The notes under the pieces: model-generated | The model's database searches: none | Told to the model about the DNA's origin: nothing | The model's input: the letters and a program-made list of their open reading frames with translations, nothing else | Translations under genes and position numbers: made by a program | From: Candidatus Omnitrophota bacterium | GTDB taxonomy: Bacteria; Omnitrophota; Gorgyraeia; Zapsychrales; Fredricksoniimonadaceae | Assembly: GCA_030650275.1 (NCBI GenBank) | Contig: JAUSEK010000023.1 | Coordinates: 34,189 to 98,188, forward strand | Reading direction: 5' to 3' | DNA: 64,000 nucleotides | Part shown: piece after piece, positions 3,492 through 6,685 of the stretch | Numbering within the stretch: position 1 is the first letter of the stretch | How the letters are laid out: every line of letters begins with the position of its first letter

Positions 3492-4137
3492 ACAGATCGC
3501 CGTTGTCATCAGGCGTTTGAAGGTGGCCATGCGCGATTGGCCGGACCCGTCGGTGACCTTGGTCGGGAAAAAATGGAAAGACCCGTTTTTGGTGCTCATC
3601 TCCTGCTTATTGAGCTTGCGGACCAAGGACGAAACCACCCTGCCGGCCTGCGAGCGTCTGTTCGCGCGCGCCAGGGATATCCGCGGCCTCTTGAACATAC
3701 CGGTCAAGGAAATGGAAAAATTGATATACCCCGTCGGGTTTTACAGGACCAAGGCCCGCACCATCCACGGTGTTTGCCGGGACCTGCGCACACGTTTCAA
3801 CGGCAAGGTCCCGGAGGACCTGGAGCAATTGCTGACCCTTAAGGGTGTCGGCCGCAAGACGGCAAACCTCGTTGTGACCGAGGGCTTTGGCAAACCCGGC
3901 ATTTGCGTGGACACGCACGTGCACCGGATCTCCAATCGCCTGGGGTATGTTCAAACCAGGACCCCCGAGGAAACGGAATTTGCTTTAAGGGCAAAATTGC
4001 CGGCGCAATACTGGATCGCATATAACGCGATGCTGGTCACGTGGGGCCAGAACGTGTGCAAACCCGTTTCACCGCTGTGTTCGCGATGCCCCGTCAGCAA
4101 AATATGCAGGCGGGTCAATGTGGGGATCCACCGATGA
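3448..4137 (+). CDS. nth: endonuclease III-like DNA glycosylase (HhH-GPD, Fe-S)
   Basis: HhH motif LKGVGRKTANLV, 4Fe-4S loop CKPVSPLCSRCPVSKIC; alternative ATG at 3478. Confidence 0.8.
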   Translation: MIRKCLKRWVMLSNKQIAVVIRRLKVAMRDWPDPSVTLVGKKWKDPFLVLISCLLSLRTKDETTLPACERLFARARDIRGLLNIPVKEMEKLIYPVGFYRTKARTIHGVCRDLRTRFNGKVPEDLEQLLTLKGVGRKTANLVVTEGFGKPGICVDTHVHRISNRLGYVQTRTPEETEFALRAKLPAQYWIAYNAMLVTWGQNVCKPVSPLCSRCPVSKICRRVNVGIHR

Positions 4138-5423
4138 AATTATTTTTATATTTCTCCGAAATGATCGGCATGGATGTCCTGGACTCCCAGGGGCAGTGGG
4201 TGGCTGGAGTGCATGACATTGCCATGAACCCCCAGGGGGACATTTATCCCAAGGCCACGGAACTCATTGTCCGGCGGGGGTTCTTGGACAAGGAGTATGC
4301 CCGCGTCGCGTGGGACGATCTCATCTATATCGAGGAAGAAGTGCGGCTGAAGACGAGCGCCGCCCAAATGGTTTTTACCAAAGACCATCCCCGCTGCGAT
4401 TTCACCCTGCGCCGCGACATCCTCGACCAGCAGGTCGTGGATACCGACGACCAGCGGGTGGTGCGCGTCAACGACATCCACCTGCTGCGCGTTGAGAACC
4501 TTATTTATGCCGCCCACGTGGACGTCAGTTTGCGCGGTCTGGTGCGCCGTTTGGGATGGACCGGGCCCGTTGACCTTCTGGTATGGTTTTTTCGCCGCCA
4601 ATCCCCGTATTTGACGCTGGAAGAGCTTATTCCCTGGAAAAATACGCAGGTCCTGCCGAAACTGGGGCGCATGAAAAGCGTGCTGAAGCTAGACGTCACC
4701 AAAAATAAATTGTCCGGCATTCCGCCGGCGGCGCTGGCAGATATCATGCAGGACCTGGACATTTTTGCCCGTGTATCGCTTTTTAAGTCCTTTGACGCGG
4801 CTTTGCAGAACAGGGTTTTCACCGACATGCCGCTGGCGCGCAAGGAAGAATTGATCGACCAGCTCGAAGAGCCTGAGGTGGCGGCCCTCATTCAAAACAT
4901 CCCGGCGGACGAAGCCACGGACCTTTTGATGAAACTGCCGCGCGCCAAGACCCATCAGCTTCTGCGTTTGTTCGGCTTGGAAGCCAGCAAAAAACTGCGC
5001 AAACTGCTGAGTTTTGCCAAGGATTCTGCCGGCGGGCTCATGACCACCGAATACCTGTCCCTCAAGCCGGATGCCACGGTGGCGGATGCCATTGCGAAGA
5101 TCAAGGACAACACCGATTTTCCCGGGAGCATTTTTTTTCTTTACATCATCGACGACAACCATAAATACCTGGGAACGACGTCCTTGCGGCGCTTCATCAA
5201 CGCGCAACCGGCCACTCCTTTATTGCGGACATGTTATCCCGAGGACGTGCATGTTTACACGGAAGATGATATCGAGCAGGTGGCGCTGCTGCTGGAGCGT
5301 TACAAATTTTCTTCCATTCCCGTCCTTAACCACGAGGGCATTTTGCAGGGGGTCATCACCATCGATGACGTCATGGAAGAATTGATCGCGCTGGTGTGGA
5401 GCAAATACAAGGAAAAACTTTAA
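4134..5423 (+). CDS. soluble MgtE-N domain plus CBS-pair protein with N-terminal PRC-barrel-like region (no TM channel domain)
   Basis: ATG at 4134 overlaps nth stop (ATGA); MgtE_N-like helical region then CBS pair; no hydrophobic segments. Confidence 0.6.
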   Translation: MKLFLYFSEMIGMDVLDSQGQWVAGVHDIAMNPQGDIYPKATELIVRRGFLDKEYARVAWDDLIYIEEEVRLKTSAAQMVFTKDHPRCDFTLRRDILDQQVVDTDDQRVVRVNDIHLLRVENLIYAAHVDVSLRGLVRRLGWTGPVDLLVWFFRRQSPYLTLEELIPWKNTQVLPKLGRMKSVLKLDVTKNKLSGIPPAALADIMQDLDIFARVSLFKSFDAALQNRVFTDMPLARKEELIDQLEEPEVAALIQNIPADEATDLLMKLPRAKTHQLLRLFGLEASKKLRKLLSFAKDSAGGLMTTEYLSLKPDATVADAIAKIKDNTDFPGSIFFLYIIDDNHKYLGTTSLRRFINAQPATPLLRTCYPEDVHVYTEDDIEQVALLLERYKFSSIPVLNHEGILQGVITIDDVMEELIALVWSKYKEKL

Positions 5424-6685
5424 TGAAGAATATTCTGGACGCTGTGCGCAAGCATCCGACCGTTGCCAGGATCATCCTGTTTTTTTCCATCATGGGTCCG
5501 GGCATCATTACGGCCAACGTGGACAACGACGCGGGCGGCATCGCCACATATTCTCTGGCCGGCGCGCATTACGGCTACACGCTGTTGTGGTCCATGCTGC
5601 CCATCACGGCGGCCCTGATCGTCGTGCAGGAGATGTGCGCGCGCATGGCGGTCGCCACCGGCAAAGGACTGGCGGACCTGATCCGCGAGAATTTCGGGGT
5701 CAAGGTCACGTTCTATCTGATGCTGGTCCTTCTGGCCGTCAATATGGGCAACGTGATGGCGGAATTCGCCGGGGTCGCGGCCAGTATGGAAATTTTCGGG
5801 GTCAGCAAATATGTTTCGGTGCCTTTGGCCGCGTTCTTTGTCTGGATGCTCGTGGTCAAGGGAAACTATAAATCCGTCGAGAAGGTCTTTCTGCTGGCCT
5901 GTTTTTTTTACGTGGCGTACATCATTTCCGGCTTCATGGCCAAACCGGATTGGGGCCAGGTGATGCGCCAGACCGTGGCCCCGCAGATCACGTTCGATCT
6001 CGGTTATTTTGTGATGCTCGTCGGTCTCGTGGGGACCACCATCGCGCCCTGGATGCAATTTTACCAGCAATCCTCAACGGTGGAAAAAGGGGTGCCGCCG
6101 GAGGAGTATAAACTCGTGCGGCTGGACGTCATCGTCGGTTGCGTCACCGCGCCCGTTGTGGCGGCTTTCATCGTCATTGCCTGCGCCGCGACGCTGTATC
6201 AGGCCGGGGTCGGGATCCAGGACGCCAAGGACGCGGCCGTGGCCCTGCAGCCCTTTGCCGGCATCCACGCGACATGGCTCTTTGCGTTCGGTCTTTTGAT
6301 CGCGTCGCTCTTTGCCGCGTCCATCCTGCCTTTGTCCACCGCGTATTCGATCTGCGGAGGCATGGGCTGGAACGAGGGGGTGAGCAAACGCTTTGACGAG
6401 GCGCCGCAATTCTTCGGCCTGTATACGGCCATGATCGTCGTCGGGGCAGGCATGGTCCTCATCCCGGATTTCCCTTTATTGAAAGTCATGTACCTTTCGC
6501 AGGTCGGCAACGGAGTGCTGCTGCCGTTCATTCTCATTTTTATGCTCAAACTGGTCAATGACCCACAGATCATGGGGGAGTTCGTCAACAAGCGCGCCAT
6601 GAACATCGTGGCCTGGTTCACGGTGGCCGTTGTCATCACCCTCACCCTGATCATGGCTGGTTTCAGTTTTGCCCGGATGGTTTAG
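5423..6685 (+). CDS. NRAMP-family divalent metal cation transporter (MntH-like)
   Basis: NRAMP signature GPGIITANVDNDAGGIATYSLAGA and about 11 TM segments; start ATG 5423 overlaps upstream stop (TAATG). Confidence 0.8.
   Translation: MKNILDAVRKHPTVARIILFFSIMGPGIITANVDNDAGGIATYSLAGAHYGYTLLWSMLPITAALIVVQEMCARMAVATGKGLADLIRENFGVKVTFYLMLVLLAVNMGNVMAEFAGVAASMEIFGVSKYVSVPLAAFFVWMLVVKGNYKSVEKVFLLACFFYVAYIISGFMAKPDWGQVMRQTVAPQITFDLGYFVMLVGLVGTTIAPWMQFYQQSSTVEKGVPPEEYKLVRLDVIVGCVTAPVVAAFIVIACAATLYQAGVGIQDAKDAAVALQPFAGIHATWLFAFGLLIASLFAASILPLSTAYSICGGMGWNEGVSKRFDEAPQFFGLYTAMIVVGAGMVLIPDFPLLKVMYLSQVGNGVLLPFILIFMLKLVNDPQIMGEFVNKRAMNIVAWFTVAVVITLTLIMAGFSFARMV

Follow-up and report, generated by a model that had tools for sequence, protein, structure and literature searches.

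Can a soluble relative of the magnesium channel MgtE act as the sensor for a transporter of an unrelated fold that is encoded by the next gene? This question is raised by two adjacent genes in a 64,000-nucleotide stretch of DNA (positions 34,189 to 98,188 of contig JAUSEK010000023.1, assembly GCA_030650275.1; hereafter the window) from a Candidatus Omnitrophota bacterium. Gene A (4134..5423, + strand) encodes a soluble protein of 429 amino acids (aa) with tandem PRC barrels, an MgtE_N domain, a CBS pair and a C-terminal helix. Gene B (5423..6685, + strand) encodes a 420-aa NRMT, a member of the Mg2+-type branch of the Nramp fold (PF01566; Pfam Nramp, E = 1e-101) with predicted transport activity. 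We read the locus as an nrmT operon in which A is a Mg2+ sensor that would shut off uncoupled uptake by B in trans, a reading to which we give slightly better than even chances. The locus is a further example of a two-gene unit that has been described before, in this case from an uncultured phylum, the Omnitrophota.

Gene A extends from the ATG at 4134 to the TAA at 5421-5423, and gene B from the ATG at 5423-5425 to the TAG at 6683-6685. The stop codon of A and the start codon of B have one base in common in the sequence TAATG, and the motif AAGGA (5409-5413) is located 9 nucleotides (nt) ahead of the ATG of gene B, the whole junction covering 5409..5425 on the + strand. An initial annotation of this DNA had placed the two genes at 4134-6685 with the TAATG overlap, which on reading the sequence turned out to be exact, and had proposed that they are translationally coupled, with which both the overlap and the upstream AAGGA agree. 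A and B are most likely co-transcribed and translationally coupled, judging from this arrangement, which would favour similar amounts of the two products.

The closest solved relative of B is the Mg2+ transporter EleNRMT of Eggerthella lenta (7qia, also its best PDB match), with an E value of 1.8e-110 over residues 15-410, compared to 1.3e-26 for the best MntH match, and the protein contains about 10-11 hydrophobic segments in a hydropathy analysis. In the first transmembrane helix (TM1) the metal-site motif is D36-A-G-G39 (5528..5539, + strand), aligned to D55-A-G-G58 of EleNRMT, in place of DPGN. In TM6 the motif is T205-T-I-A208-P-W210 (6035..6052, + strand) in place of A-x-x-M-P-H, with Thr for Ala, Ala for Met and no proton-coupling His. 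Residues D36, G39, T205, A208 and Q360 of B are equivalent to D55, G58, T224, A227 and Q379 of EleNRMT, the Asp, Gly, Thr, Ala and Gln residues that shape its Mg2+ site (Ramanadane et al., 2022, PMC8806188). These positions are highly conserved in the Omnitrophota orthologues: DAGG is present in 66 of 69, TTIAPW in 59 of the 65 with a readable site, G39 in 64 of 64, and Q360 in helix 10 in all 63 orthologues with a residue at that column. Scores obtained with MntH models were below their cut-offs (NF001923, 145.4 bits vs. 430; TIGR01197, 64.7 vs. 272.5). Gene B had been annotated as a canonical NRAMP of the DPGN type, and the annotation had named the comparison of DPGN/MPH with NRMT-type substitutions as a check. 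This comparison revealed NRMT-type substitutions, since the stretch that had been quoted as DPGN-type aligns as DAGG and TM6 reads TTIAPW. Together with the weak similarity to MntH, the two motifs rule out a canonical NRAMP/MntH. The additional suggestion of an NRMT-like Mg or Mn importer holds as far as NRMT identity is concerned, based on the match to EleNRMT and the site residues, and transport is predicted from these. Uptake by NRMTs is H+-independent (PMC9606685), and gene B would take up Mg2+ (and Mn2+) uncoupled from protons via a widened binding site.

The domain organization of A was also as annotated, with a PRC barrel, MgtE_N and a CBS pair and without the MgtE membrane channel, as shown by Pfam searches and hydropathy. 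PRC barrel 1 (aa 1-90; 4134..4403, + strand) contains a Pfam PRC match at aa 5-37 that is barely over the gathering score. It is followed by a divergent PRC-like barrel 2 with a helical linker (aa 91-190; 4404..4703, + strand), recognized from conservation, from sub-threshold PRC matches of residues 91-175 (E = 0.001-0.04) and from an hhalign comparison of barrel 1 and barrel 2 (E = 8.5e-5). In an AlphaFold model based on 15 close sequences residues 98-193 were poorly modelled; a deeper alignment improved them, giving a predicted local distance difference test (pLDDT) score of about 80 for barrel 2 and the linker. The closest solved match of the PRC module is 8qzo, an archaeal pair of PRC-barrel proteins that forms a heterodimeric complex. 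The MgtE_N helical domain (aa 197-297; 4722..5024, + strand; Pfam 4.4e-16), which includes D259 and D263, and the CBS pair (aa 303-417; 5040..5384, + strand; Pfam 2.2e-16), which includes K391, D412 and E415, are found in the MgtE-type order. A C-terminal helix (5385..5420, + strand), aligned as a gapless extension past the end of 2yvy, takes the position of the MgtE plug helix, and the model contains a helix at residues 410-428. The top PDB sequence matches of A are MgtE cytoplasmic domains (8gpv, 2e-29; 2yvy, 7e-23). The five-helix MgtE pore domain PF01769 gave no Pfam match in gene A, no 19-residue window of A has membrane-like hydropathy, and the TIGR00400 mgtE model matched at profile positions 19-251 of 450 only (144.8 bits vs. 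a cut-off of 232.75).

The lack of a membrane domain could mean that A derives from a full MgtE gene that lost its pore and is now decaying, and the initial annotation had considered such a truncated pseudogene. However, more than 100 Omnitrophota clusters contain A at full length, with 55-95% identity, many of its residues are invariant, and its open reading frame (ORF) ends cleanly at the coupled start. A large family, with 852 representatives at 50% clustering, can be defined by the first 190 residues; this module is found at the N-terminus in every case, and full-length members mostly comprise 410-450 aa. The family profile matches at least 5239 protein clusters. No MgtE-like sequence was found elsewhere in the 64-kb window. 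The truncated-pseudogene reading is refuted by the conservation of the family and by this negative search, and we give the idea of a remnant practically no credence.

The pairing is far from unique to this genome. Relatives of gene A were found in 284 genomes of a set with a single genome for each species, and the best 80 of these, all from Omnitrophota or similarly labelled metagenome-assembled genomes, were taken for comparison. The closest relatives of A are from Candidatus Omnitrophota (94-95% identity). Counted in locus neighbourhoods, so that an NRMT elsewhere in the genome remains compatible with a negative count, an NRMT gene is located directly downstream of A on the same strand in 69 of the 78 Omnitrophota loci with room downstream of A. 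In the 67 loci with a called start of B the two genes are spaced by -28 to +332 nt, in most cases by no more than 20 nt, and they often overlap. A profile of far family members, about 30% identical to A, yielded 80 metagenomic loci, 76 of them with room. In this distant set the NRMT gene is directly downstream in 67 of the 76 and nearby in five more (72/76 in total), and two named examples, from Thermodesulfobacteriota and Binatia, contain the same pair among otherwise unrelated neighbours. The co-occurrence of the pair across genomes, which had been suggested as a check, is therefore found both within the phylum and far beyond it. All partner-linked transporters have a non-canonical site and none has DPGN or MPH; the consensus is D-A-G/S/T-G/A in TM1 and T/A-T-I/V-A/T-P-W/Y in TM6. 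Some variants were observed. The orthologues of L020, L024 and L030, the only three Omnitrophota loci with NSAG, combine it with TTITPW, the TM1 Asp, which is universal otherwise, being replaced by Asn. Among the distant loci DASG/TTITPW occurs without the helix-10 Gln (Ala or Ser), DATG/TTITPW with Asn at that position, and DAGG/TTITPY with the Gln retained. A magnesium riboswitch (M-box, RF00380, 133 bits) was detected at 3741-3907 of the distant locus L145, directly 5' of a PRC-type gene A that is followed by an NRMT gene; this case, the only M-box among the 16 distant loci scanned, links the pair to Mg2+.

If A is a sensor, the question is what it senses. Residues of A were mapped onto MgtE of T. 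thermophilus (Tt) via a phmmer alignment to 2yvy, using the Mg2+-site assignments of Maruyama et al. (PMC5882242). D259 corresponds to Tt D91 (Mg4), D263 to D95 (Mg6), D412 to D247 (Mg4) and E415 to D250 (Mg5), and none of the four varies within the Omnitrophota clade. Family-wide conservation was counted in 76 diverse representatives (mean column identity 27%); D259 is present in 65, D263 in 70 and D412 in 60 of them, and an acidic residue occupies the E415 position in only 39. Mutation of Tt D91, D95 or D247 prevents Mg2+-dependent closure of MgtE (PMC5882242). Alternatively, the CBS pair of A could respond to ATP, ADP or a different adenine ligand instead of Mg2+, and A would then adjust the transporter to a nucleotide level or to the energy state. 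Adenine nucleotides are common ligands of CBS pairs, and in MgtE the Mg2+ gating is tuned by ATP bound to the CBS domain (PMC5529423). Equivalents of the Tt ATP site are frequently retained in the wider family (Tyr170 is Tyr in 54/76, Arg187 is Arg or Lys in 67/76 and the ribose-binding Asp188 is Asp or Glu in 42/76), and A has a weak NCBIfam match to CbpB, which binds cyclic di-adenosine monophosphate (c-di-AMP), at 5.4e-7, far under the cut-off. In A and its clade, however, this site is degraded: Tyr170 is replaced by F335, Asp188 by R353 and Asn203 by Y368, Arg187 is R352 and Phe227 is F392. Across the clade the Arg alone is constant, the Phe227 position being F, T or S, so the set of residues that characterizes an ATP-binding CBS pair is not present in A. 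The acidic Mg2+-site residues are better kept than those of the nucleotide site, and we consider nucleotide sensing rather improbable.

The part of the family that is conserved best is not the Mg2+ site. Matches in Pfam were obtained to MgtE_N for 75 of the 76 representatives, to CBS for 73 and to PRC for 56. The barrel 2 region is the best-conserved part of the whole family: D98, Q100, D103, R111, N113, D114, D130, R138, R139 and W168 are each present in 73-76 of the 76, which exceeds the conservation of every MgtE-type Mg2+-site residue. A metal site could be formed in barrel 2 by D98, D103, D114 and D130 together with N113 and Q100, and A is acidic overall (63 D/E vs. 53 K/R). These features could belong to a metal chaperone or buffer that takes Mg2+ or Mn2+ from the exit of the transporter or passes it on, which is the alternative role offered by Shin et al. 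(PMC4072509). Such a chaperone would have no clear purpose for Mg2+, because free Mg2+ in cells is millimolar, and the homologous domain of MgtE is a sensor, not a carrier (PMC5882242); we regard the chaperone role as quite improbable.

The PRC module is also found on proteins of another kind. Four proteins of about 600 aa, P0193 (602 aa), P0231 (597 aa), P0230 and P0255, combine it with MgtE_N and CBS. A complete pore domain (PF01769) is also matched in three of these proteins, and inspection of the individual domains confirmed this architecture in P0193 and P0231. From these sequences there looks to be a PRC-bearing subclass of full MgtE channels. Because the same N-terminal module is present on both, the soluble partner and this subclass share ancestry, and the fusion to complete MgtE channels in P0193 and P0231 suggests that the module belongs to the regulatory apparatus of Mg2+ transport. 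A literature search returned nothing that pairs PRC barrels with MgtE, nor NrmT with CBS domains, and the tandem PRC module of the partner family, with its occurrence on a few full MgtE channels, may be undescribed. One step further, the partner family could be an obligate regulatory subunit that, with an MgtE-type sensor acting in trans, makes an uncoupled LeuT-fold carrier Mg2+-gated, with the near-invariant PRC module as the docking adaptor that PRC-bearing MgtE channels use in cis. The key residues of such an adaptor would be D98, Q100, D103, N113, D114, D130, R138, R139 and W168. We propose this tentatively and would sooner expect it to fail than to hold.

For the operon itself the following mechanism can be envisaged. 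A would dock on the cytoplasmic face of B with its invariant second PRC-like domain, with the C-terminal helix found in place of the MgtE plug helix, or with both. This helix is aromatic and basic (W422, K424, Y425, K426) and not acidic as the MgtE plug; W422, Y425 and L429 do not vary within the Omnitrophota clade, and tails with Trp and Arg/Lys recur in distant members. Rising cytosolic Mg2+ would bind A at the acidic interface of the N-domain and the CBS pair (D259, D263, D412, E415), and Mg2+-bound A would close like the MgtE cytoplasmic domain, thereby shutting uncoupled uptake through B. Besides MgtE, CorA is a precedent for the shut-off of uptake. Physiologically such a device is sensible because NRMT uptake is not proton-coupled (PMC9606685). 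Physical contact between A and B, binding of Mg2+ by A and the direction of regulation are what we infer here; gating in trans is plausible given the homology, the partially conserved Mg2+ site and the gene linkage.

Several findings weigh against a Mg2+-sensing partner of B. The first of these concern the sensor. Tt E59 has no alignable equivalent in A, and of the other seven MgtE site acids four are kept and three are replaced: the Mg5 aspartate Tt D226 is K391, a lysine that is invariant in the clade, and the plug-helix acids E258 and D259 are S423 and K424. The MgtE sensor is therefore preserved only in part. The residue pattern fits a sensor that would still close on Mg2+ and contact a different membrane partner. 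The sensed ion need not be Mg2+ either, since the paired transporter of A. capsulatum probably carries Mn2+ (Shin et al., PMC4072509). A scan of the window at the Rfam gathering threshold detected no M-box riboswitch (RF00380). Transporters of this type also function without a partner: Ca_c0685, Ca_c3329 and Acp2977 each complement a transporter-deficient strain alone, and co-expression of Acp2976 brought no better rescue (PMC4072509). An NRMT that works alone fits a role of A as an inhibitor and proves nothing. In line with this independence, purified EleNRMT reportedly transports in liposomes.

The remaining findings concern the linkage to B. In nine of the 78 Omnitrophota loci (~12%; L005, L008, L009, L014, L015, L016, L034, L038 and L058, with A at ~4001-5290 in most) A is intact and well conserved and no NRMT gene is adjacent. 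In these loci A is followed directly by the Ddl-like ATP-grasp gene or by some other gene, such as an HD-domain signalling gene in L009, which overlaps the stop codon of A, and an unrelated ORF in L014. This survival of A without an adjacent NRMT may be undescribed. Closely related A genes are moreover followed by two NRMT subtypes, one 52-54% identical to B (L002, L007, L011, L013, L039, L048, L052-L055, L059 and L071) and one 60-95% identical in the other Omnitrophota loci, which points to an exchange of the transporter behind a partner that was retained. In a mirror-tree comparison the divergence of A tracked that of the neighbouring gene nth more than that of B (Mantel r = 0.66 for A-nth and 0.48 for A-B; partial r for A-B given nth, 0.43). 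A might thus act mainly on a target that is not an NRMT, its adjacency to B reflecting co-regulation only. The NRMT-less loci, with the signalling gene in L009, and the mirror-tree result favour this, as do the presence of the PRC module on MgtE channels and its match to the heterodimeric complex of 8qzo. Against it, linkage of about 90% persists at about 30% identity amid unrelated neighbours, stop-start overlaps are frequent, A is linked to NRMT-type and never to canonical Nramp genes, and an NRMT may be encoded elsewhere in the nine genomes that lack one beside A. We consider a different main target very improbable, and retain the reading of A as the Mg2+ sensor of B. If it is true, one Mg2+-sensing module has been reused on two unrelated folds, the MgtE pore and the LeuT-fold carrier, and it would be explained how cells avoid cytoplasmic overload from uncoupled Mg2+ uptake.

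The pair belongs to a run of four closely spaced, partly overlapping + strand genes: nth, gene A, gene B and a Ddl-like ATP-grasp gene. The endonuclease III-like gene nth (3448..4137, + strand; Pfam HhH-GPD 4.7e-24, HHH and EndIII Fe-S) ends with a TGA stop that overlaps the ATG of A (ATGA, 4134-4137), which the initial annotation had missed. Because of this overlap the transcription unit is likely nth-A-B rather than A-B alone, nth probably being the first gene of the same transcript, and no promoter- or terminator-like site beyond chance was found between the three genes. nth is located directly 5' of A in all Omnitrophota loci in which A is at least 49% identical, and not in a group with 40% identity. 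The ATP-grasp gene (6741-7775, + strand) follows gene B after a gap of 55 nt. An ATP-grasp gene comes after the NRMT in many Omnitrophota loci, and here it overlaps a lysine-2,3-aminomutase-like radical SAM gene (7772-8956) by 4 nt. Further downstream, a perfect sigma-70 consensus (8961-8988; TTGACA, 16 nt, TATAAT; 12/12) precedes an ORF (9201-10778) which, by eye only, we take to resemble purH. G+C content is low at 36001-38000 (0.45) and 52001-58000 (0.44-0.48), compared to ~0.56 elsewhere in the window; the latter stretch begins at a tRNA gene (52404-52477) and may therefore be an integrated element.

The locus is best understood next to the nrmT operons of Shin et al. (2014, PLoS Genet, PMC4072509), who defined the NrmT group. 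They reported that most nrmT genes adjoin a gene for a homologue of the MgtE cytoplasmic domain, described the partner as a 'small protein', and already proposed feedback regulation by it as speculation. The trans-regulation suggested in the initial annotation, an NRAMP gated by a separate cytosolic subunit, is thus a rediscovery. In the searchable literature we found no later paper testing the regulatory role of the partner, which a 2025 preprint on MgtE classification and a 2026 review of Mg transporters do not mention. The question of regulation was raised in 2014; particular residues and the N-terminal PRC module are now singled out as targets, and the remaining interest lies in the partner family, with its invariant PRC module, its presence on MgtE channels and its occasional NRMT-less loci. 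In the operons of A. capsulatum (Acp2976/Acp2977) and C. acetobutylicum (Ca_c0685), as here, an MgtE-domain homologue is encoded directly upstream of an NRMT-branch gene, and A and B show the feature that marks these operons, a separate gene for the MgtE cytoplasmic domain that adjoins an NRMT gene. Many nrmT operons are co-transcribed under M-box riboswitches (PMC4072509), a common but non-obligatory control in this family, whereas this window contains none, the pair is placed behind nth and the host belongs to the Omnitrophota.

The individual components can be compared in the same way. B has site residues identical to those of EleNRMT (Asp, Gly, Thr, Ala, Gln) and both lack the TM6 His; the EleNRMT paper (PMC8806188) covers the isolated protein and mentions no partner, whereas B is known from its sequence. 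Canonical NRAMP/MntH proteins (SLC11, Mn2+/Fe2+-H+ symporters) have the same Pfam family PF01566 and overall fold as B, but B lacks DPGN and A-x-x-M-P-H and its similarity to them is only ~1e-26. Compared to Tt MgtE (2YVX, 2YVY, 5X9G), A lacks the pore domain and has an additional tandem PRC module, aromatic and basic residues stand at the positions of the plug-helix acids, D226 is replaced by lysine and the ATP site is degraded. The presumed target of A is a LeuT-fold carrier that has a gene of its own.

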